From positions 46,031 to 110,030 of the forward strand of contig CAYQDR010000003.1 of assembly GCA_964416315.1 (NCBI GenBank): 64,000 nucleotides of DNA, in the 5' to 3' direction. Source of the stretch: an uncultured bacterium. GTDB lineage: Bacteria > Methylomirabilota > Methylomirabilia > Rokubacteriales > DASRDR01. The position numbers were made by a program, and so were the translations under genes. Positions 8,067 to 44,500 of this stretch are shown here, piece after piece (the stretch's first letter is position 1; each line of letters opens with the position of its first letter). The notes under the pieces were generated by a model. It did not search any database and was not told the DNA's origin. It saw only the letters and a program-made list of their open reading frames with translations.

Positions 8067-8999
8067 ATGCTGAAAGCGGTGGTCGGGGCCACCGCCACGA
8101 TTGCCGCGCTCCTGGTGGGCGAGCTGACCCTGCGCGCCGCCCGCTTCGAGTTTCACCTCTACCCGCGGGTCGAGTTCGGCTGGCCTGACCCGGAGGAGCT
8201 GGAGGAGCACTATGAGGACGACCCGGATCTGTTCTGGGTCCCCGAGGACTACGCCGAGAGGCTGGAGATGGCCAGAAAGGCGCCTCCCGGCGTCGTCTTC
8301 ATGGGTGACTCCGTCACCGAGTTCGGGACGTATCCGCAGCAGACGATCCAGCTCCTGCACACACGGCGTCCAGCGCTGGCGAGCGGCGTCTCGCTCGGGG
8401 TCGGCGGGTGGTCATCCGAGCAGGGGCTGGCTCAGCTGACGCGCGACGTCCTTGCCCTCAAGCCGAAGGTCATCACCATCTATTACGGCTGGAACGACCA
8501 CTGGATTGCGCTCGGCCCGCCCGATCCCGAGTTGCGCCGCCTCACCTCGGTCGCCGACCGGTTGAGGCTGGTCCAGCTTGTGAAAAAGACCAGGATGGTG
8601 CTGGCGGCAGATCCCGCGCGACCGAATCGGGTGAGCCTCAGTCGCTATCGCTCGAACCTCGAGACGATGGCGCGGCTCGGTGCGGCGGCCGGGGCCCGGG
8701 TGATCCTCCTCACCGCGCCGTCGAATCATGTGCGGGGGCGGGAGCCGGAGTATCTCGCGCTGCGTCACCTCCGGCGACTGGATGAGCTGGTGCCTCTCCA
8801 TCAGGCCTATGTCGAGGCGACACGCGCCGCGGCGGCGGCCACGCCCGCGACGCTATGCGATATTGCCGCCGACCTCGAGAGCGACGCGGTGGTGCGGTCC
8901 TCCTACTTCCGGGCCGATGGCATCCATCTCGCCGAGGCAGGCGACCGGCGCGTGGCCGAGCTGCTGGCCGAGTGCATCGAGCGCGCGTTCGCGGAGTAG
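8067..8999 (+). CDS. SGNH/GDSL hydrolase
   Basis: FMGDSVTE block I, YGWNDH block III, DGIHL block V. ATG at 8067 lies inside the longer ORF 7689-8999. Confidence 0.65.
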   Translation: MLKAVVGATATIAALLVGELTLRAARFEFHLYPRVEFGWPDPEELEEHYEDDPDLFWVPEDYAERLEMARKAPPGVVFMGDSVTEFGTYPQQTIQLLHTRRPALASGVSLGVGGWSSEQGLAQLTRDVLALKPKVITIYYGWNDHWIALGPPDPELRRLTSVADRLRLVQLVKKTRMVLAADPARPNRVSLSRYRSNLETMARLGAAAGARVILLTAPSNHVRGREPEYLALRHLRRLDELVPLHQAYVEATRAAAAATPATLCDIAADLESDAVVRSSYFRADGIHLAEAGDRRVAELLAECIERAFAE

Positions 9000-9142
9000 G
9001 GCCAGGCTGCCCACCGAGGATCGAGCCCCTCTCGGCTCACCCCGGGCCGTGATTTGGGTGTCGGAGCCGCGAGCTCGACCGCGATCGCCCGCAATTCCCA
9101 GAGTTGCGGAAGACGACTGAGAAACGGGCCCGGAGCCCGGGC

Positions 9143-10483
9143 CTACTCCCACATCGCGTCGAAGATGGAGCCGGCGAGCGTCGGGAAGACGTAGTGCATC
9201 GCGGCGAGATCCTGGCGCGTGAGCCCCCCGCGCATGGCGGCCGAAGCGACGTGGATCAGGTCCTCGGCCCCCGGACCGAGAATGTGGGCCCCAAGGAGCC
9301 GCCCGGTCGACGCCTCGGCCACCACCTTGACGAGGCCCTCGGTTTCCTCCCGCACCGCCGCCGCGGTGCTGTCCTCGAAGGGGACCCGGCTTACTGAGAC
9401 CTCGAGCCCCTGCCGCCGCGCCTCGGCCTCCGTGAGCCCGACCTGCCCGATCGCCGGGATCGTGAAGACGGCCGTGGGGAACCACCGGAGGTCCACCGCG
9501 CGCTGGTTGCCTCGGAGCGCGTTCTCCGCGACGAGGCGGCCCTCGTACCAGGCGACGGGGGTGTGCTGGTGCTGGCCCGTGACGTCGCCCGCGGCGTACA
9601 CATGCGCGGCCGTGGGTGACTGGCGGAACTCGTTGACCTTCACCCCGCCCCGCTCCACCGCCACGCCGGCGGCCTCGAGGCCGAGGCCGGCGGTGTTCGG
9701 GGGGCGGCCGGTCGCCACCAGGACGACGTCGCCCGGGAACCGCTCGGCGCGCCCCCCGACCTCCGCCTCGACCGTGCGGTCGGCGCCGATCCGCGTGACG
9801 CGCGCCCCCGTCCGGACCTCGAGCCCGGCGTCCCGGGCGATCGCGAGCAGCGCCTCGCGGATCTCGTCGTCCAGGGCCGGCAGGACGTGCGGCCCCGACT
9901 GGAGCACGGTGACGCGCGTCCCGGCCCGCGCAAAGGCGAAGCCGAGCTCCATCCCGATGTAGCCGCCGCCGACCACCACCATCCGCGCCGGCAGGGTGGC
10001 GTGGTCGAGCAACTCGTCGCTCGTCATGGCGTGCTCGATCCCGGGGATCGGCGGCCGGGCCGGGGAGGAGCCGGTCGCGATGATGACGCGCTCGGCCGTG
10101 ACCCGGCGCCCGGCGACGTCGAGCTCGCGCGGCCCGCGGAACGTCGCGCGGCCGCGGAGAACCGCGATCCCCTGCCGCTCGAAGCCCGTGTCCTTCCCGG
10201 CCGACCACTCCGCCACCAGGCGGTTCTTCCGCGCGATGATGGCACCCCAATCGAGCCCCAGCCCCGCCGTCCCCGTCACGCCCAGCCCGGCCGCGCGGCG
10301 CGCCCGCCAGGCCAGCTCCACGGTGCTGACCAGCACCTTTTTCGGGATTCAGCCGCGCCCGAGGCAGGTTCCCGCGAAGCCGTCCGCCTCCACGAGCGCC
10401 GTCCGGGCGCCGAGCCCGACGGCCGTCCGGGCGGCGAAGCCCCCCGCCGTTCCCGCGCCGATCACCAGGAGATCGTAGTCCAC
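9143..10483 (-). CDS. MerA-like flavoprotein disulfide reductase; in-frame TGA (10351-10349) at the second active-site Cys, candidate selenoprotein
   Basis: MDYDLLVIGAGTAGG FAD-binding fold. Active site GTCLGRG-[TGA]-IPKK where the family has CxxxxC. Blocks IIATGSSPARPPIPGI, LVATGRPPNT and VYAAGD resemble MerA-core blocks as recalled. Strong SD GGAGAGGAGG 5 nt before GTG 10483. The ORF track shows only the post-TGA part, 9143-10336. Confidence 0.7.
10322..10337 (-). ncRNA. SECIS-like stem-loop GGUGCU-GGUC-AGCACC, 11 nt downstream of the UGA at 10351
   Basis: Perfect 6-bp stem with GGUC loop. Spacing and loop match the E. coli fdhF SECIS apical hairpin as I recall it. Confidence 0.55.
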
Positions 10484-10523
10484 ACGGACCTCCTCTCCGC
10501 GAGTGACCCCGACTGCCGTCCTC

Positions 10524-10706
10524 TCAGCCTCGTCCCTCCACGGGCACGAGGGCCCAGGCGCCGAACTCGTAGGTGACGCGCTGCCGCACTCCGTGGCACT
10601 CGATCAGGTCACCGGGCCGCACGTCGTCCGGCAGATGCACGACGTGCTCCCCCACCGCACAGCTCGCCGTCTTGACCGGGCTGACCGTCCACACGCCGTC
10701 CGTCAC
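10524..10706 (-). CDS. hypothetical 60-aa protein between the redoxin and reductase genes
   Basis: ORF MTDGVWTVSPVKTASCAVGEHVVHLPDDVRPGDLIECHGV... No family recognised. Could be a small beta-barrel protein or non-coding. Confidence 0.3.
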   Translation of the reverse strand: MTDGVWTVSPVKTASCAVGEHVVHLPDDVRPGDLIECHGVRQRVTYEFGAWALVPVEGRG

Positions 10707-10824
10707 GCTCGCCCGGAGCGTGAGCCCGGCTCAGTTGGGTCAGTCGAAGACCCCGCCGTTGGCGATCCCGTCCGGGATCGCGATCTGCTGGCCTCAGCCC
10801 GGGCACCAGGCGGTCGGCATCCGC

Positions 10825-11061
10825 CTACGCGAGCCCGAGCAGCCGCTCGAGCCTGCCCCGGTCGAAGCCCACCACGGCCTCGCCGTCGATGACGGTGACC
10901 GGCGTGGCGCGGTAACCGAGCGCCTGGAGCTCCGCCAGGGCGGCTGGGTCCTGACGGATGTTCCGGTCGGTGAACACGACGCCTTTCTGAGAAAGAAACT
11001 CTTTCTCCGCCTGGCAGGCCCCTCAGCCAGGCTGCGTGTAGACGACGACCGACTTGGCCAT
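10825..11061 (-). CDS. NrdH/glutaredoxin-like redoxin with UxxC motif (TGA at 11025-11023), candidate selenoprotein
   Basis: MAKSVVVYTQPG-[TGA]-GACQAEKEFL..TPVTVIDGE..VGF is the NrdH/Grx fold with the first Cys of CxxC replaced by TGA. SD GGAGGG before ATG 11061. Hairpin GAGAAAG-AGUUU-CUUUCUC at 10989-11007, 15 nt after the UGA. Confidence 0.65.
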
Positions 11062-11227
11062 CACGCCCTCCGTTCGCTCACGCGGCGTTCCCCGCCAGGA
11101 GGCCGCCGAAGATCCGGCGGCCGAGCTTGAACGCTTCGCCCACCGTGGCGCCGGCCCCGGGCACGTCGGGGTGCGCGTCGTGCCAGGCCCGCAGGTGCTC
11201 TTCCGACCGGAAGAAGTTGAGCGTCGT

Positions 11228-11758
11228 TCAGAGCGAGGTGAAAACCTTCCGGTCGATCTCCCCCCGCTTCCCGACCCAGACCATGACCCCGTCGGCACCC
11301 GGACCCGGTCCCTCCGCGTCGGCCTCGAACTCGAGGGGCCCCCCGCAGTGGTGGCAGCGCGAGCGGATCTCCATGCACTGGCCCAGCATCGCCGCCACTC
11401 CGAGCGCGTCGATGGCGCAGCACGCGTACCGGCGCCGGCCGCCCGGGAGCACCACCGCGAACGCCGTCGGCACGGCGGCGAAGGGGTAGGCGAGCTCCAC
11501 CCGCCCCTCGCGGACAAGGATCAGGTCCCGCTCGTCCAGGCCCGCGACCTCCTCCAGCAGGCCATCGCGGGGTCGATCCGGAAACCAGGCCACGATCTCA
11601 TCGATCGGGATCGCTCCCTCCCGCTCGACAAACCGCCGGAGGATGCGCTGGAAGACCGCGTCCAGGCGCTCGGCCCGGCGGGTGGCCCAGCGCGCCTCGA
11701 GCTCCGGATCTACCAGCTCCTCGGCGGTCTTGATCTCCAGCGCCACCCGAGGCCTCAT
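11228..11758 (-). CDS. MerB-family (organomercurial lyase-like) paralogue
   Basis: YACCAIDALG and SRCHHCGG align with the MerB WCAxDTL and CxHxHFF catalytic regions. ATG 11758 directly abuts the merE stop. Confidence 0.6.
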   Translation of the reverse strand: MRPRVALEIKTAEELVDPELEARWATRRAERLDAVFQRILRRFVEREGAIPIDEIVAWFPDRPRDGLLEEVAGLDERDLILVREGRVELAYPFAAVPTAFAVVLPGGRRRYACCAIDALGVAAMLGQCMEIRSRCHHCGGPLEFEADAEGPGPGADGVMVWVGKRGEIDRKVFTSL

Positions 11759-12075
11759 GCGGCTGGACGGGGGGAGCCGCCCACCCCATTGGATTCGGCG
11801 ACCGGGGGCCGCGATTCGCCCGCCGTCCGGGGCGTCCCGCGGTCCGGCTCCCCCCAGGCCCGCAACCCGCGGAGCAGCGAGCCGGCGAAGACGACCGTCA
11901 TGACCGCGAAGGCCGCCGCCGCGTGCTCCCGGAGGACGGCGGCCAGGGCCGTGCCGCCCAACAGGGCGAGCGCCAGCGGAAGGTGGCACGGGCACGTGAC
12001 GGCGGCCACCCCGAGCAGGAGGTACGCCTTCCGTGGCCGCCCCGCCTCCGGTACGCCCCGGGTCATCGCCCGCAT
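11755..12075 (-). CDS. merE: MerE-like mercury transporter
   Basis: LLGVAAVTCPCHLPLALALLGGTALAAV matches the MerE LTCPCHLP transmembrane signature as recalled. Alternative ATG at 12066. Confidence 0.65.
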   Translation of the reverse strand: MRAMTRGVPEAGRPRKAYLLLGVAAVTCPCHLPLALALLGGTALAAVLREHAAAAFAVMTVVFAGSLLRGLRAWGEPDRGTPRTAGESRPPVAESNGVGGSPRPAA

Positions 12076-12082
12076 CGCACGC

Positions 12083-12724
12083 TCACGAACCCGGCAGCCG
12101 CCGCGCTTTGAAGCCCGCCGCTGCGATCGCCTCGACCATGCGCTCGATGGTAACCGAGGCGGGGTCGTACGTCACCCACGCCTTCGCCTGCTCGAAGCTC
12201 ACCTCGGCGTGCTGGATGCCCGGGAGCCCTGCCAGGGCTCGCTCGACCACGGTGGGTCAGGACCCTCAGGTCATCCCGTCCACCTGCAGGATCACGCGCG
12301 CCGCGACGACCGCGCCATGGCCGCCGGACGGACTCGGCCCGGTCCCCGCCTCGTGCTCCATCGCCGCGATTCCGCCCCACGACGCGATGAGCCGTGCCGT
12401 TCGGTCAGGGAACGCCGTCAGGACGACGGCAGCGGCGAGCACAACCGTCGAGATCCCCAGGAGCACTCCGTTGACACGGCCGCCGGCCATGGCGCATCCG
12501 AGCCGCTGGCAGCGCCGCCGTTCCCGCAGGTGGAGGTACCAGCCGAGGCCCGTCCCGAGGACCCCCGCGGGGATGAAGACGTACGTGTACCGCATCGTCA
12601 CCGCCATGAATGCCCCACTCCCCAGGCCGAGCACGACGACCGCGAGGGGGAAGAGGCAGCAGAGCGAGGCAACCGACGCGGACGCCATCGCCACGATGCT
12701 CGACCTCACGTCTGCGAGCTTCAC
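12083..12724 (-). CDS. MerT-like membrane protein fused to a MerP-like HMA domain; metal-binding motif reads GMT-[TGA]-GS-[TGA]
   Basis: TM1 with vicinal CC (ASLCCLFPLAVVVLGLG), loop Cys pair CQRLGC, third TM, then an HMA fold ILQVDGMT-U-GS-U-PTVVERALAGLPGIQHAEVSF..AWVTYDP..IERMVEAIAAAGF. TGA codons at 12268-12266 and 12259-12257. Hairpin GAGCCC-UGGCA-GGGCUC at 12224-12240. Start GTG 12724 overlaps the anti-sigma stop. Confidence 0.6.
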
Positions 12725-13368
12725 GGCCGCACCTGGTCCACCGTCGCGAGGCGTGCGAGCCAGAGGCCGGCGAAGGCCCAGAGCACCGCCCCGAGCCCCA
12801 GCCCCGAGACGAAGGCCACCTGGAGGGTGGGCGCGAACTCGCGGCACTGGATGATCACGTAGGGCGCCAGAATCCCGAGGAACAGCACGCCCGCTTCGAC
12901 CGCCCGGACCGCGGTCCCGTGCCGCAACAGCCACACGCCCAGCGCGACCGGTATCCCGTACGCAGCCCCGGCGACGAGATACGGCAGCGCATCGACGTCG
13001 GACCCCTGGAGCGCCTGCCGACACCAGGCGACCAGGAGGGGATACGGCACGAGCAGCGACAGCACGAGCGAAGCCGCGATCCCGATCAAGGCAGCCTGGG
13101 CGGCTGCGGCCCACCCGCGAAGCGCCAGGACGGACTCCCGGAGGGCGCGGCGGCGTACCTCGCGCAGCACCCGGGTCCTCACCGCGGCCGGGGGCGGCGC
13201 CGCCCCAGGCCAGCGGTCCAGGAGCGCCCAGGTCCCCCGGAGCGCCTCCAGCTCGGCGCGGCAATCCGCGCACGTCTCGAGATGCGACGCCACGTCCCCG
13301 GCCGGGGAGTCCTCCGCACCCCCAAGGCCGACGTCAAGCAGCCGGTCCCTGACCCCATCGCACTCCAT
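12721..13368 (-). CDS. membrane-bound ZAS-type (zinc-binding) anti-sigma factor
   Basis: C3...H29-x3-C33-x2-C36 ZAS motif (MECDG...SHLETCADC) followed by several transmembrane helices. Confidence 0.65.
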   Translation of the reverse strand: MECDGVRDRLLDVGLGGAEDSPAGDVASHLETCADCRAELEALRGTWALLDRWPGAAPPPAAVRTRVLREVRRRALRESVLALRGWAAAAQAALIGIAASLVLSLLVPYPLLVAWCRQALQGSDVDALPYLVAGAAYGIPVALGVWLLRHGTAVRAVEAGVLFLGILAPYVIIQCREFAPTLQVAFVSGLGLGAVLWAFAGLWLARLATVDQVRP

Positions 13369-13411
13369 GGCACGCCCCTCTGCCCTGGGAAACGAAAGGC
13401 GACGCGCTCCG

Positions 13412-13963
13412 TTACAGCTCGCCGAGCAGATCGCGGAGCCGGCGAAGGGCCCGGTGGAGGGTGACCCGCACCGCGCCCGGGGACGCCCCGATGATCTCCG
13501 CGACCTCCTCGGCGCTCAATCCGCCGAACCGGCAGAGGAGGACGACCTCGCGGTGGGAGGGGGGAAGCTCCAGCATCGCCGCCTGGAATCGCTCGCTGAG
13601 CTCGCCCGCCTCGGCCCGCTCCAGCGGCGTCGCGCTCGGATCGGCCAGCGTCTCGGCGAGCTCGCCGCCCTCCAGCACTCGCGCTCCGCTCCGTCGCCGG
13701 AACTCGTCCACGACCAGGTTTCGGGCGATGGTGAAGAGCCAGGTCCTGAACGCGGCGCTGGGACGCCAGCCCTCGCGGTGTGCGAACACCCGGAGAAACG
13801 TCTCCTGGAGGAGGTCCTCCGCCTTCCGCCGCTCGCCGAGGGACCGGAGCAGGAAGGTGAACACCCTTCGATGGTGCCGGTCGTAGAGCGCCTCGAAGGC
13901 TGTCGGGCTCCCCGCCCGCACCTCGTCCATGAGCACTTCGTCCGAGCGAGTCTCGCGCGGCAT
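13412..13963 (-). CDS. ECF-type RNA polymerase sigma-70 factor
   Basis: Sigma-70 region 2 and region 4 (FLLRSLGERRKAEDLLQETFLRVF ... LSAEEVAEIIGASPGAVRVTLHRALRRL). Start ATG at M17 of the listed ORF. Confidence 0.8.
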   Translation of the reverse strand: MPRETRSDEVLMDEVRAGSPTAFEALYDRHHRRVFTFLLRSLGERRKAEDLLQETFLRVFAHREGWRPSAAFRTWLFTIARNLVVDEFRRRSGARVLEGGELAETLADPSATPLERAEAGELSERFQAAMLELPPSHREVVLLCRFGGLSAEEVAEIIGASPGAVRVTLHRALRRLRDLLGEL

Positions 13964-14102
13964 GGCGAATCGGGGCGAAACGTCTTGAGTATACGCAGCG
14001 GCCAACCCCACGTCCGCGGGCGGAGATCGTCGCCGAGAATCCCTGGGCGCCCCGGACCCCTCAGAAGGCGTGAAGGGCAGACAGGACGAAGGAGGTCACG
14101 TC

Positions 14103-14765
14103 ATGAGCAACGTCCGCGCAGCCGAAGCCGTGTGGAAGCTGACCAGCGACGGGAGCGTGCTGGACTACGGACCGGATCTCTCGCACCTGCTCGTCCGCGT
14201 CATGCGGGCGCTCGCCCGGGGCCGTCCGGTCGCTGCCCGGGAAGCGGATCGCATCCGCGCCGCCCTCGGCATCACTCGAGACGAGGCGGAGCGCTTCCTG
14301 AGCGGGGTAGCCGAGCGGAACGCCGACGGTGACGTCGTCGGGATCCTCGGGCTGACGCTGACCGAGACGCGTCACCGCTTCGCCGTCAACGGCGCGAGGA
14401 TGTCCACGTGGTGCGCCGAGGACACGTTGTTCCTGCCCGCCATACTGAACGAGACGGCCACAGTCGAGTCCACGTCCCCGGTCAGCAGCCAAACGATCCG
14501 GCTGACCGTGAGCCCGGACGGAGTGGAGGAGGTCAGCCCGGCCAGCGCGGTCGTCTCGCTGGTCGTCGTCGAGCCGGATCGGGCGGACATGAGCTCGGTC
14601 GAGGCGATCTGGACCACGTTCTGCCACCACATCCACTACTTCGCATCGACGGAGGAAGCCGAGCAGTGGGCCGGCGGCAGGGACGACATCGAAATCGTCC
14701 CGGTCCACGAGGCGTTCGAGCTCGGCCGGCGGGTCTCGTCGAGGTTTCTCGCCTACGCGGAGTGA
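14103..14765 (+). CDS. merB: organomercurial lyase MerB
   Basis: TWCAEDTLFLPAIL (Cys/Asp), FCHHIHYFAS (Cys) and VPVHEAFELG match canonical MerB. SD AGGAGG 7 nt before ATG 14103. Divergent from the sigma factor gene. Confidence 0.8.
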   Translation: MSNVRAAEAVWKLTSDGSVLDYGPDLSHLLVRVMRALARGRPVAAREADRIRAALGITRDEAERFLSGVAERNADGDVVGILGLTLTETRHRFAVNGARMSTWCAEDTLFLPAILNETATVESTSPVSSQTIRLTVSPDGVEEVSPASAVVSLVVVEPDRADMSSVEAIWTTFCHHIHYFASTEEAEQWAGGRDDIEIVPVHEAFELGRRVSSRFLAYAE

Positions 14766-28691: not shown

Positions 28692-30347
28692 TCAGATGAG
28701 CCCAGTGATGGTGCCGGCCGCGTCGACGTCGATCCGCTCGGCGTTCGGCGAGCGCGGGAGGCCCGGCATCGTCATGATCTCGCCCGTGATCGGCACGAGG
28801 AACCCCGCCCCGGCCGAGATCCGCACTTCGCTCACGGTCACCGCGAAGTCCCGCGGCCGGCCGAGGAGCGCCGGGTCGTCCGAGAGCGAGCGCTGGGTCT
28901 TCGCCATGCAGATCGGCAGCCCCGCGTACCCGAGCGCCTCGGCCTGGGCGATCTGCGCCTCGGCGCGCTTCGTGTAGACGACCCGCTCGGCCCCGTACAT
29001 CCGCGTCGCGATCGTCTCGATCTTCGCCCGGATCGGCGCTGCCCAGTCGTAGAGCGGCCGGAAGCGCGCGGGCTCGCGCGCGAGGAGATCCACGAGCGCG
29101 GCAGCCAGGCCCTCGCCCCCCGCGCCGCCCTGCCGGAAGACGTCGGCGACCTCCGCGCGGACGCCCAGGCCCGCGCAGTGCTCGGTGATCGCGGCCAACT
29201 CGGCATCCGTGTCGGAGGGGAAGCGGTTCAGCGCGACCACCAGCGGCACGCCGAAGAGTCGGATGTCCTCGACGTGCTGCTCGAGGTTCGCGATCCCGCG
29301 CTTGATCGCCGGGAGATCCTCCTGGTCCACCCCGCTCATGGGCACGCCGCCGTGGTACTTGAGCGCGCGCGCCGTGGCGACCAGCACGACGGCGTCGGGG
29401 GCGAGACCCGCGTAGCCGCACTTGATGTCGAAGAACTTCTCGGCCCCGAGGTCGAAGCCGAACCCTGCTTCCGTCACGCAGATCTCGCCGAGCTTGAGGG
29501 CGAGCTTGGTGGCGACGACCGAGTTGCAGCCGTGCGCGATGTTCGCGAAGGGCCCGCCGTGGATCAGCGCCGGCGTGCCCTCGAGCGTCTGGACGAGGTT
29601 TGGGTGGATCGCGTCGCGGAGGAGCGCCGCCATCGCGCCGGTGACCTTCAGGTCCGCCGCGTGGACGGGGCGGCCGTCGAAGGTGAAGGCGAGCAGGATC
29701 CGACCCAGGCGCGCCTTGAGATCCGTCAAGTTCTCGGCCAGGCAGAGGAGGGCCATGACCTCCGAGGCGGCCGTGATGAGGAAGCCCTCTTCCCGGGGAT
29801 AGCCCTGGAGGCGGCCCCCCAGCCCCAGCACGGTCTGGCGGAGCGCCCGGTCGTTCATGTCGAGCGCCCGCCGGAAGAGGATCTGCCGCGGGTCGATCCG
29901 GAGCAGGTTGTCGTGGAAGAGGTGGTTGTCGAGGCACGCCGCGAGGAGGTTGTGGGCACTCGAGACGGCGTGGAGATCGCCCGTGAAGTGGAGGTTGATC
30001 TCGTCGGCGGGGACCACCTGGGCGCGGCCGCCGCCAGTCCCGCCCCCCTTGACGCCGAGGCAGGGGCCGATCGAGGGCTCGCGGAGGGCGACCACGGCGC
30101 GCCGCCCGACGCGGGCGAGGGCCTGGCCGAGGCCGATCGTCACGGTGGTCTTGCCGTCCCCGGGCGGCGTCGGCGTGATCGAGGAGACCACGACGAGCTT
30201 CCCGTTCGGGCGGTCGCGCCGCGTCTCCAGCACCCGCAGGTGAACCTTGGCCTTGGCGTGGCCGTAGGGGATGAGGTCGGCGTCGCCGAGGCCGAGGCCG
30301 GCCGCGACCTCGCCGATCGATCGGATCGTGGACACCCGCGCGCTCAC
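28692..30347 (-). CDS. fhs: formate--tetrahydrofolate ligase
   Basis: TPTPPGDGKTTVTIGL (PTPAGEGKTT signature) and full-length FTHFS homology. GTG start at 30347 chosen by N-terminal alignment to known Fhs proteins. The rest of the 671-aa ORF overlaps arsC in another frame. Confidence 0.85.
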   Translation of the reverse strand: MSARVSTIRSIGEVAAGLGLGDADLIPYGHAKAKVHLRVLETRRDRPNGKLVVVSSITPTPPGDGKTTVTIGLGQALARVGRRAVVALREPSIGPCLGVKGGGTGGGRAQVVPADEINLHFTGDLHAVSSAHNLLAACLDNHLFHDNLLRIDPRQILFRRALDMNDRALRQTVLGLGGRLQGYPREEGFLITAASEVMALLCLAENLTDLKARLGRILLAFTFDGRPVHAADLKVTGAMAALLRDAIHPNLVQTLEGTPALIHGGPFANIAHGCNSVVATKLALKLGEICVTEAGFGFDLGAEKFFDIKCGYAGLAPDAVVLVATARALKYHGGVPMSGVDQEDLPAIKRGIANLEQHVEDIRLFGVPLVVALNRFPSDTDAELAAITEHCAGLGVRAEVADVFRQGGAGGEGLAAALVDLLAREPARFRPLYDWAAPIRAKIETIATRMYGAERVVYTKRAEAQIAQAEALGYAGLPICMAKTQRSLSDDPALLGRPRDFAVTVSEVRISAGAGFLVPITGEIMTMPGLPRSPNAERIDVDAAGTITGLI

Positions 30348-30691
30348 GAGAGCCCACCCAGCGCGCGCCGATAGAGCTCCTCGGTGAAGCCCCGCACGAG
30401 GAGCCCGCCGTCCACGAGGACCGGTACCCGCATCCAGCCGTCCTCGTGGATCAAGTACGTCGCCACCTCCTGGTCCGTCATCGCGCCCCCCTCCGCCGAG
30501 AAGTGCAGGATCTCCTGCCCCGCCTTGACCCAGAGCTCCCGCGCCGCCCAGGCCAGCGCCAGCGTCACCGCGCGCCCGACCGGCCGCTCCTCGACGTAGC
30601 GGTTCTCGAACGCGATGCCGTGAGCCGAGAGGAACCCTCTCGCGCCGGTGCAGGTCGGTCAGTTGTGGCGGTTGTAGAGGATCGCGGTCAT
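30344..30691 (-). CDS. ArsC/Spx-family protein with catalytic Cys replaced by in-frame TGA (30661-30659), candidate selenoprotein
   Basis: MTAILYNRHN-[TGA]-PTCTGARGFL...MRVPVLVDGGLLVRGFTEELY aligns with the ArsC/Spx fold (IYHNPAC / NCDT region, C-terminal RPIVV.DG...GF). Hairpin CGAGAGG-AAC-CCUCUCG at 30626-30642, 16 nt after the UGA. Stop overlaps the fhs GTG as GTGA. Confidence 0.6.
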
Positions 30692-42639: not shown

Positions 42640-44500
42640 GCTTACCGATGATCTCTCGGCGTCAAGCATGCGCAGCGCCAGGATAGCGGACCGTGCCGAA
42701 CAACCGATGCAGCCCGAGCCCCCTCAGCCAGCCGAACGACCACCGGGAGATCGCCGCGTGCCGGTCCCGCAGACCGTGACGCCGGGCCAGAAACAGCCCG
42801 AGCCGTTGCCGCACGTAGTGATCGATCTGGTTGAACTTCAGGGTGGCATTCCCAGCCGCGCGATGACGACCCGCACGTCCTTCACCCCGCTGTGCCGCGC
42901 GTCCGTCAGCTCTCGAATGCGAGCCCCGAAGCCGCTTCATGCTCCTCGGCGACGGCCATCGCTGCAAAAACATCCGGCCGGGATACCGCACCGACCGGCA
43001 CTTCTTCAGCCGACATCCGAGGAACTCGAAGCCCTCCTGCCCGCCCCCGAGCGCCACCAGCCGCGTCTTCTCCGGATGCGCCTCCAATCAGCCCCACCCG
43101 CCTGAGCGCCTCCCGCGCCTGCCCCTCGGTGCGACAGAGCACCACGAGATCGTCGGCGTAGCGAACCAACACGCCGAGCCCCGCGCACCGCTGCTGCCAG
43201 ATCCGATCGAGCCCATGCCGGGAGATGTTCGAGAGCAGCGGCGAGATTACCCCACCCTGCGGCGTCCCCACCACCGTCGCCTCTCGACGCCCTTCCTCCA
43301 GCACCCCGGCCTTCAGCCATCGCCGGATCAGCTTCAGCACCCGCCGGTCCGACACCCGCCGCCCCACTTCCCCCATCAGCCGGTCGTGGTCGATGCGGCC
43401 GAAGTAGTCCTGAATGTCGACCTCTACCACATGATCGTGCCCCTGGTTCGCTGTGACCCGAATGGTCTCCAGCGCCTCCGTGGCGCTTCGCTTCGGCCGG
43501 AACCCGTAGGACACCGGCAGAAAATCGGCCTCGAAGAGCGGCTCGATCACCAGCTTGGTCGCCATCTGCACGACCCGGTCCCGGACTGTCGGAATGCCCA
43601 ACGGCCGTCGCCGTCCATCCGCCTTCGGGATGTACCGCCGCTCCACCGGTGCCGGTCGGTACCGCCCAGCCTTGAGGTCGGCCTGGATCTCGTGAAGAAA
43701 CCCCTCGACCCCCCGCTGCTCAATGGCCGCGATCGTCTCGCCGTCCACCCCCGCAGCGCCCCGATTCGCTCGCACCCCGCGCCACGCTTCCCACAGGACG
43801 TCACTCCTGTAGATCCGGTCGTACAGCGCGTGGAACCGCCGCCCCCGACTCCGCTTGGCCGCACGCCACAGCGCCCGCTGGAGTTCTCGCACTTTGCCGT
43901 CCGGGTCGTTGGAGCTTGCGCTCATGCCCTCGCGCTTACCCCCAGGCGGACGCATGACCAAAGCAGGGGCCCTTCCCTCCAGGCGATTGTCTCGCCCTTC
44001 CCCGGTACTCCGACCCCCTCGGACGCCCTCCCGACGCCCCGCCGTTTCGGACTCGCCTTATCGACGTGGCCGTGCTCTGACTTGAGCCGTCGGGGAGGGC
44101 CTCTCCAGTTCCGCACCGGGCCATGGACACGTGCCGCTCCCCGTACCCCGGAGGGGTCCAGCGCCGCGCCGATCCTTACGCGCTGTCTGTGGCCTTCGCC
44201 GTGACATGCCCGGCTCGGCCCCCTCTGCCTTTCGGCTGATAATCTGACGAGGCGGCAGGATTCACGTGATGTTGCGGCCCGCGCCCTCGCTCCCTCCGTA
44301 GAGGCTCTTGACGCCCTGCTCAGCGTCGAGGCTCTCACCTCGCCGCCAGGGCCTGCTACTGAGCGCATCGGCGCTTACTCAGGCGGGACTTCCACCCGCA
44401 GGTCCGGTGCAGCTTGGCTGGACGCAGCACGGGAACAGCATACCACTCGCTCCCCTGGACTGGACCCCAAGGGCGCCGTCCGTGGGTGATCCAGGATCCG
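42640..44500 (-). mobile_element. group II intron (boundaries approximate) with degenerate intron-encoded protein
   Basis: Intron-encoded protein has RT motifs [30 protein letters not shown] and YADDLVV. The maturase/X domain [11 protein letters not shown]...NQIDHYVRQRL continues in a different frame. About 550 nt of non-coding 5' sequence fits domains I-III. Confidence 0.55.
42662..43925 (-). pseudogene. group II intron RT/maturase with frameshift between RT and X domains
   Basis: RT domain in frame of ORF 42906-43961 (start ATG 43925). X domain in frame of ORF 42662-43087. Confidence 0.55.

Follow-up and report, generated by a model that had tools for sequence, protein, structure and literature searches.

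What does an in-frame TGA mean in a gene that shows no other lesion? The question is raised by a small glutaredoxin-like gene (grx) in a 64,000-nucleotide stretch of contig CAYQDR010000003.1, hereafter the window, from an uncultured bacterium of the Rokubacteriales. The gene runs from 11061 to 10825 on the minus strand and comprises 78 codons, translated as MAKSVVVYTQPG*GACQAEKEFLSQKGVVFTDRNIRQDPAALAELQALGYRATPVTVIDGEAVVGFDRGRLERLLGLA*. Its sole internal stop is a TGA at 11023..11025, residue 13, followed by the codons GGG GCC TGC, and its terminal stop is a TAG (10827..10825). A Shine-Dalgarno sequence, GGAGGG, lies at 11066..11071, 4 nt 5' of the ATG, and the stop of a MerB-like gene is only 16 nt upstream of the same ATG. 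The sequence thus agrees with a preliminary description of this locus, which reported TGA-GGG-GCC-TGC within a 78-codon open reading frame (ORF), preceded by a Shine-Dalgarno sequence and free of further lesions. Judging from sequence comparison, the TGA is almost certainly a genuine selenocysteine (Sec) codon. We consider it highly probable that grx is a functional selenoprotein gene of the cGrx1 family (cGrx1/YruB type, active site U13-G-A-C16) and one cistron of a mer-like operon, its UGA at codon 13 being decoded as Sec under the direction of a selenocysteine insertion sequence (SECIS) element.

The TGA is conserved in position far beyond this genome. A protein search returned 804 homologues, and DNA was retrieved for 9 metagenome and 52 genome loci (L labels denote these DNA loci retrieved for comparison, P labels database protein homologues). 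The motif ..VY(T/S)QPG-x-xxC.. was recognisable in 58 sequences, counting retrieved loci and the window, and the codon at the Sec position is TGA in 50 of them, TGT or TGC in seven and TGG in one, with no other in-frame stop. The 12 codons upstream (VVVY[TS]QPG) are conserved among TGA-bearing loci. These loci span at least eight phyla, with sources in Rokubacteria/Methylomirabilota, Binatia, Syntrophobacteraceae, Acidobacteriota, Chloroflexota, Nitrospinota, Nitrospirota, Zixibacteria and Clostridia, including a cultured Clostridium-class isolate, Natronincola peptidivorans. The preliminary description had named fragmentary homologues with random stops as the pattern that would speak against a Sec codon, and what is found instead is a TGA that keeps its place. 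A large share of database homologues are 65-aa fragments beginning one codon past the TGA, gene callers having taken an ATG, GTG or TTG right after it as a new start. In a Rokubacteria metagenome-assembled genome (MAG; locus L062), the gene table has a 78-residue product across the TGA and the Sec-containing neighbours are split into pieces; this entry suggests that the NCBI annotation pipeline may already recognise the Sec-glutaredoxin family.

A predicted SECIS hairpin, GAGAAAGA-GUU-UCUUUCUC, follows the TGA at 10989..11007 on the minus strand, within the coding sequence, where it encodes EKEFLS. It has an 8-bp stem whose first base is 15 nt past the TGA, a UGA-to-apical-loop spacing of 23 nt, the loop A-GUU-U and a minimum free energy (MFE) of -8.7 kcal/mol. 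Each feature lies within the published bounds for bacterial SECIS elements, namely a loop of 3-9 nt, a stem of 4-16 bp, a G in the first two loop positions, a UGA-loop spacing of 16-37 nt and an MFE of -7.5 kcal/mol or lower (PMC13188914). Across 44 distinct sequences, 96.9% of the cells at the 8 stem pairs are paired, compared with 39-76% in slid controls. Pair 20-36 is U-A in 25 sequences, A-U in 8 and U-G in 5, pair 23-33 shows one double change from A-U to C-G, and none of 500 shuffles reaches the observed covariation score. Codon choice points the same way. The hairpin codons, GAG AAA GAG TTT CTT TCT CAG, include AAA, TTT, CTT and TCT, which make up 4.6%, 4.6%, 2.0% and 1.7% of the codons for their own amino acids (14,109 codons from confident window ORFs), and spelling the peptide EKEFLSQ in this way in a 72% GC genome has a joint probability of about 5e-7. 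The same AT-rich spelling is nearly invariant between phyla. By these comparative measures, the hairpin is constrained at the nucleotide level.

Homologues with cysteine (Cys) in place of Sec also occur, including the database proteins P0001, P0010, P0019, P0040 and P0079. The seven TGT or TGC forms of the genome set have neither the hairpin nor the KEFLSQ peptide and read KAWLQDK, KAYLEAN and similar. Among metagenomic Cys forms, L071 retains the hairpin and L072 carries a decayed one, GAAAAAGAGTTTCTATCTC. Loss or decay of the hairpin in Cys forms is the pattern expected once replacement of Sec by Cys releases the constraint on the RNA. The single TGG (Trp) at the Sec site, in a Rubrobacterales MAG (L032:5022-5078), is accompanied by a hairpin preserved via a double compensatory change, GACAG...CUGUC; this may reflect an error in the assembly, a recent loss or a working WxxC form.

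Could the TGA be something other than a Sec codon? In a decaying glutaredoxin gene it would be a nonsense mutation, and gene callers do split grx, the record for this contig being the 50-aa fragment P0029. Decay is hard to reconcile with a TGA shared by 50 loci in at least eight phyla, with conserved upstream codons and no other stops, or with a hairpin held under nucleotide-level constraint. Moreover, in four neighbours of grx the TGAs fall solely on Cys positions. We give a pseudogene practically no credence; on the sequence comparison it is refuted for practical purposes. An equally negligible chance attaches to a genome-wide reassignment of TGA (e.g., to Trp or Gly) or to production of the downstream part alone from an internal start. 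Such readings could draw on the W at the site in the database homologues P0005, P0017 and P0062 and on the many homologues annotated as 65-aa proteins starting just past the TGA. However, the DNA underlying P0005 (L070) reads TGA and the deposited protein is not obtained under code 11, so its Trp is spurious, the product of gene calling under an alternative genetic code; other database proteins with PGW..C can likewise be gene-caller artefacts. TGA terminates 27 of the 50 long coding ORFs of the window as an ordinary stop, which excludes genome-wide reassignment, and the Sec position aligns with Cys in homologues. As for an internal start, the TGA is followed by GGG, which is no start codon, and the first possible start yields a 50-aa piece without strand 1 and the whole active site.

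With Sec decoding as the preferred reading, the protein falls into a known family. Pfam Glutaredoxin (PF00462) matches across the full domain when Cys is substituted for the stop (E 2e-14; residues 5-63, profile 1-60/60). Among solved structures the nearest is PDB 7C10/7C12 (E 1e-19 by phmmer, residues 1-77 on 1-77), which is glutaredoxin-1 of Clostridium oremlandii, cGrx1 (PMC7642778). The two proteins are 55% identical over 77 residues in a gapless alignment (BLASTP), and Cys13 of the crystallised U13C form stands opposite the TGA. cGrx1 is a native selenoprotein with the catalytic Sec U13 and the resolving Cys C16 (PMC4479559), and Sec-glutaredoxin (PF00462, UxxC) is among the experimentally supported prokaryotic selenoproteins (PMC13188914). 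Structural modelling, proposed in the preliminary description, recovers a glutaredoxin fold in P0001, a natural Cys homologue with 78% identity. Its AlphaFold model (pLDDT 94.7) has a beta-alpha-beta-alpha-beta-beta-alpha topology, with strands E5-9, E31-34, E55-58 and E61-64 and helices H14-25, H39-47 and H68-74. The best Foldseek match of this model is 7C10, cGrx1, with a TM score of 0.92-0.95, and on this model the U13-G-A-C16 active site of the window protein lies at the N-terminus of helix 1. With its glutaredoxin fold, UxxC motif and kinship to cGrx1, the protein belongs where the preliminary description had put it, in a known selenoprotein class of Sec redoxins.

The likeness to cGrx1 extends along the chain. 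Both proteins have Sec at residue 13 and a resolving Cys at 16, both end in VVGFDR...LL(G), and the EKEFLS of the window protein corresponds to VKEFLS in cGrx1; the codons of this peptide form the SECIS hairpin in the window gene and in the relatives compared as DNA, cGrx1 having been compared as a protein. NCBIfam models rank identically for the two, with GlrX_YruB, NrdH and Uxx_star scoring 68.9, 56.6 and 55.6 bits for the window protein, all under cutoff, and 85.9, 62.0 and 54.5 bits for cGrx1. In both cases other selenoproteins encoded in the genome are possible clients, as Sec-MsrA is for cGrx1. The differences lie in the active site, which is UGAC here and UPHC in cGrx1, in the host, a 72% GC member of the Rokubacteria as against Clostridium (Alkaliphilus) oremlandii OhILAs, and in the setting, since the window gene has mer-like surroundings whereas cGrx1 is MsrA-linked; the window member is known from sequence alone. 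In Natronincola, the relative at L054 adjoins an ArsR gene and an ACR3-type transporter gene.

NrdH, the label chosen in the preliminary description, does not suit the protein. NrdH proteins are marked by a C-V/M-Q-C active site and a WSGFRP motif, and none is known to be a selenoprotein. Their likeness to the window protein is real: NrdH-redoxins (E. coli 1H75, C. glutamicum 4FIW, M. tuberculosis 4HS1) are small proteins of about 75-80 residues with a glutaredoxin fold and a CxxC at the same place, and they are the next-best structural and hidden Markov model (HMM) matches. However, the window protein has U-G-A-C and VVGFDR in place of CVQC and WSGFRP, and profile comparison, which gives a full-length match to Pfam Glutaredoxin, leaves both NrdH models below cutoff (TIGR02194, 56.6 vs 85.75 bits; NF007657, 34.8 vs 131). 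No nrdI, nrdE or nrdF lies nearby, the neighbours being MerB-like, zinc-ribbon, MerA-like, MerE and MerT-HMA genes. Two further candidates were rejected. UXX-star (NF041212 and relatives) scores 55.6 bits against a cutoff of 66, with the relatives lower, and the window protein ends in ...LLGLA before its TAG, with no Sec 3 residues before the stop; classical Grx3 was dismissed on motifs and HMM cutoffs. By sequence, then, grx encodes a further member of a known, experimentally characterised selenoprotein family and not an NrdH.

Several observations weigh against this account of the gene. The 64-kb window holds no selA, selB, selC or selD gene, and it contains no tRNA (ARAGORN) and no tRNA-Sec by Rfam at gathering thresholds, so we infer the Sec machinery rather than see it, with indirect support from six further genes or motifs of the window (the four operon neighbours and an ArsC-family gene) in which TGA stands at Cys positions. 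The folding energy of the hairpin is by itself unexceptional (z -1.7; 13 of 200 shuffles are as stable), and fold energy does not set the hairpins apart from shuffles either (z -0.6 to -1.7). Covariation is limited to two pairs, one of which has 6 unpaired cells (U-C or A-C). Given the unremarkable folding energy, the case for a SECIS rests on conservation, covariation and codon choice. In addition, the protein misses every NCBIfam glutaredoxin cutoff (the best being YruB, TIGR02196, 68.9 vs 88.55 bits), and cGrx1 also misses YruB. Finally, about half of the homologous loci have unrelated neighbours and no nearby metal gene, so the role of the family need not be mercury-specific.

Around grx lies an unusual, mer-like operon. 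Its genes, grx among them, are closely packed in a string on the minus strand, where several overlap (GTGA/ATGA) or lie 4-40 nt apart. At the head of the string are genes for an ECF sigma factor (14011..13412; Pfam Sigma70_ECF in the L001 gene table) and an anti-sigma factor of the zf-HC2 type (13368..12721; anti-sigma HMMs). They are followed by a fusion of a MerT-like membrane domain with an HMA domain (12083..12724), which reads GMT-U-GS-U across TGAs at 12268 and 12259 and scores 92.2 bits against a cutoff of 95 for NF041115. A small membrane protein that resembles MerE and carries a CPC motif (11755..12075; NCBIfam MerE 59 bits, Pfam MerE in the L001 gene table) precedes a MerB-like lyase homologue (11078..11758), which reads FTSL-U-TTLNFF across a TGA at 11230 and scores below cutoff for both SaoL (59 bits) and MerB (50 bits). 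Beyond grx lie a tandem LysW-like zinc-ribbon ORF of 98 codons (10524..10820), with three in-frame TGAs (CPGU...UPNU) and a LysW domain score of 41 bits, and a MerA-like class I flavoprotein disulfide-reductase homologue (9143..10483) with the site GTCLGRG-U-IPKK (CxxxxU), an MerA HMM score of 352.8 bits and PDB 5X1Y as best PDB match. The preliminary description placed grx between the merB-like and the MerA-like gene; the former is indeed directly upstream, but the zinc-ribbon ORF separates grx from the latter. Divergent from the operon, on the plus strand, is a conventional all-Cys MerB gene (14070..14765; NCBIfam MerB 189.7 bits, cutoff 193).

Five genes of the operon thus hold eight in-frame TGAs in about 3.6 kb. 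All eight fall on positions that are metal-ligand or redox Cys in homologues, and a hairpin follows each. The TGAs recur at the Rokubacteria loci L003, L010, L015 and L062, where Cys and Sec swap at single positions (CPNU vs UPNU). GMT-U-GS-U corresponds to the HMA motif GMTCxxC with two Sec, and its UxxU is conserved in L003, L010 and L062. The TGA of the MerB-like gene, 49 residues from the C-terminus, is conserved in L010 and L062, and its putative Sec (SL-U-TT) aligns with the Cys159/160 region of MerB. The zinc ribbon begins 4 nt past the grx stop and has its TGAs in CPxC knuckles. The one in the first knuckle and the last in the second are conserved in L003, L010 and L015, where the opener of the second knuckle is Cys (CPNU). 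Its homologues, 34 in number and mostly from Rokubacteria, include L003:5310-5597, L010:2213-2497 and L062:5517-5816, the last with UPNR (CGA), and full-length all-Cys forms exist (P0241 and P0242, PF21344). This zinc-ribbon gene, directly downstream, is the most constant partner of grx in the phylum of the window (window, L062, L003-6, L010, L015).

A promoter and terminator scan of 8900-14300 gave nothing useful, the lone "terminator" being the reverse complement of the reductase SECIS hairpin. Elsewhere in the window, an ArsC/Spx-family ORF at about 30320-30690 on the minus strand, reading MTAILYNRHN-U-PTC... (UxxC), has its TGA at a Cys position (30661) and after it a hairpin, CGAGAGG-GUU-CCUCUCG, that closely resembles the one in grx and has equal spacing. 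It scores 47 bits, against a cutoff of 85, for the NCBIfam model "ArsC family (seleno)protein", and from its sequence is likely another selenoprotein of this genome. The sole Rfam match in the window is unrelated, a group II intron domain D1-D4 RNA (RF02003, 90.5 bits) at 44267-44401 on the minus strand.

The MerA-like flavoprotein would, if its TGA is likewise decoded, have its flavin-proximal Cys replaced by Sec. It belongs to a large family. Among its best 120 database homologues, all proteins listed end at the TGA (392-401 aa), and the closest relatives, at 92% identity, are named "Candidatus Rokubacteria", which, taken with a GC content of 72%, assigns the window to that phylum. MerA is recognised by a redox-active Cys pair, Tyr264, Tyr605 and a C-terminal vicinal Cys pair (PMC8261052). 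In a residue-level alignment with its best PDB match, the MerA 5X1Y, the window protein has Asp opposite the Tyr of QKYMD, taken as the Tyr264 equivalent, and Phe opposite the Tyr of APYLT (Tyr605). It ends 9 residues past that Phe, with no C-terminal CC, and has no NmerA domain. Its MerA HMM score of 352.8 bits compares with a cutoff of 454.45 (TIGR02053). Identity as a bona fide MerA was therefore rejected, on the C-x4-U site, the Tyr equivalents, the C-terminal Cys pair and the HMM score. The protein also reads FPTLAG and has no His-Glu dyad of disulfide reductases. The family is found mostly outside mer contexts: homologues 71-78% identical occur in five other contexts without nearby glutaredoxin or mer genes. 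Among the loci of this family (L063-L069), the L068 relative has TGA at both redox positions (UxxxxU).

Which proteins, then, would the Sec-glutaredoxin serve? Homology with cGrx1 suggests that U13 is the attacking nucleophile of the window protein and C16 the resolving residue. The U13 selenolate would attack an oxidised or metal-bound Cys or Sec of a partner protein, and C16 would resolve the mixed Se-S intermediate to give an intramolecular selenenylsulfide, which could be re-reduced by a low-molecular-weight thiol or possibly by the CxxxxU flavoprotein of the operon. In this way grx would hold the Sec and Cys metal-handling residues of its operon neighbours reduced or adduct-free. Precedent comes from the "tandem use of selenocysteine" (Kim 2011), in which, as related in PMC13188914 and PMC4479559, cGrx1 is adapted to reduce Sec-MsrA. 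Since a selenolate redoxin is here encoded among Sec proteins, as cGrx1 is with Sec-MsrA, the most likely role of grx, on this analogy, is to reduce or de-adduct the Sec and Cys sites of the metal-handling proteins of its operon.

Two more specific roles compete or overlap with this one. The preliminary description proposed a dedicated Se-redoxin/reductase pair, in which grx would be the protein substrate of the MerA-like CxxxxU reductase in a relay from NADPH through the flavoprotein to the Sec-redoxin. The two genes do share an operon in the window, L001, L002 and L062, the Acidobacterial Sec-glutaredoxin clusters L021 and L023 contain an unrelated Cys-type flavoprotein reductase, and a MerA-like enzyme of Synechocystis PCC6803, Slr1849, is controlled by glutaredoxin 1 (Marteyn et al. 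2013, as cited in PMC8261052). In that system, too, a glutaredoxin and a MerA-like flavoprotein are functionally linked, in the reduction of Hg(II) and in tolerance to it; as cited there, both are Cys proteins, their link is regulatory, and no operon pairing of their genes is reported. Gene order does not back the proposal. The five reductase contexts without grx, and the fact that most Sec-glutaredoxin loci outside the lineage of the window have no CxxxxU reductase, argue against it, and in one of the five (L068) the same MAG bears a Sec-glutaredoxin cluster on another contig (L010). The pairing is weakened further because the reductase is no bona fide MerA and has no His-Glu dyad. Class I reductases of this size, moreover, normally reduce small disulfides rather than proteins. 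We regard the dedicated pair as unlikely.

A slightly better, still doubtful prospect is a shuttle for Hg(II) or organomercury, which overlaps the reducing role preferred above. U13 and C16 would bind Hg(II) as a linear Se-Hg-S complex and carry it from the MerT-HMA protein or the MerB-like lyase to the CxxxxU flavoprotein, substituting for NmerA and the C-terminal Cys pair. This would suit a reductase that has neither, and a redoxin encoded amid metal-ligand proteins whose ligand Cys are replaced by Sec; grx also recurs beside MerT-HMA, CsoR, MerR and P1B ATPases in other phyla, and selenolates bind Hg(II) more strongly than thiolates do, as is established chemistry. However, the very tight Hg-Se bond would hinder onward transfer, the characterised relative cGrx1 is an oxidoreductase, nearby metal genes are absent from about half of the loci, and sequence features do not distinguish a metal-binding from a redox-active redoxin. 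In the canonical mer system, Hg(II) is handed on by NmerA, by HMA modules of the MerP type and by a Cys pair at the C-terminus of MerA. Like them, grx is a small dithiol(ate) module in a mer operon, placed to pass Hg(II) or reducing equivalents among transporter, lyase and reductase. In contrast to the ferredoxin-like HMA fold of NmerA and MerP, it is thioredoxin-like, free-standing and has one Sec, and its carrier role is hypothetical.

Gene context in other lineages, as read from their sequences, supports a tie between grx and soft-metal handling more generally, its usual neighbours being genes for metal transport and for regulators that respond to metals. In the flanks of 18 of 40 TGA-bearing genome loci there is a match to MerT, HMA, MerE, MerR, CsoR, a MerB-like protein or the zinc ribbon, and three further loci carry HMA-bearing P1B ATPases. 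In Rokubacteria-type clusters, a small MJ0307-like thioredoxin gene with an active-site TGA (LTAPG-U-ANC) lies upstream of grx (L003:4681-4962, also L004-L006 and L015) and adjoins genes for a DsbD_TM protein and a MerR regulator. In Acidobacterial clusters, MerT-HMA and the Sec-glutaredoxin flank a conserved protein of 177 aa that looks secreted and matches nothing in Pfam or NCBIfam (L007:5419-5949; homologues in L016, L021 and L023).

Sec proteins that handle mercury or organometals have been described before, including MerT-family proteins, the UxxU protein of NF041115 and the MerB-like lyase SaoL (Zhang & Gladyshev 2008; Haft & Gwadz 2022). The HMA domain of the operon, at 92 bits, resembles the UxxU metal-binding (seleno)protein NF041115. 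The MerB-like protein departs from SaoL, with an L-U instead of a C-U dipeptide and 59 bits against a cutoff of 140. In contrast to the SAO system, the operon has no ABC transporter or other SAO-type gene, and its host belongs to the Rokubacteria rather than being an anaerobic Firmicute. Those accounts do not include the glutaredoxin, the zinc-ribbon protein or the CxxxxU flavoprotein. Neither the CxxxxU class I flavoprotein nor the LysW-like Sec zinc ribbon appears in a current catalogue of prokaryotic selenoproteins, and a limited literature search found no account of a mer-type operon with selenoproteins as essentially its full set of partners.

For the glutaredoxin family itself, the finding adds little beyond what is known, and its practical value is the correction of annotation: Sec-glutaredoxins of the cGrx1 type occur widely among uncultured phyla of soil and groundwater, and they are systematically misannotated, some as fragments of 50-65 aa and others with a Trp wrongly placed at the Sec site. 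The operon setting is worth more than grx alone, being an apparent mercury-handling operon almost wholly of selenoproteins. A speculative reading, to which we attach a low probability, is that the operon carries out Se-based detoxification of mercury and organomercury, with nearly all the metal-ligating or redox Cys of the classical mer proteins (MerT-MerP, MerB, MerA) replaced by Sec, and that the Sec-glutaredoxin, possibly with the triple-Sec zinc ribbon, relays Hg(II), electrons or both between the Sec-lyase or transporter and the CxxxxU flavoprotein. If so, the Sec-glutaredoxin would take the place of both the NmerA domain and the pair of C-terminal Cys needed by all canonical MerA enzymes, and the CxxxxU flavoprotein and the LysW-like Sec zinc ribbon would each stand for a selenoprotein family not described before. 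Mercury toxicity stems largely from the binding of selenols. An operon working in this way would show cells exploiting Se-Hg chemistry for scavenging or demethylation rather than being poisoned by it, and would offer a defined gene set with which that chemistry could be tested.

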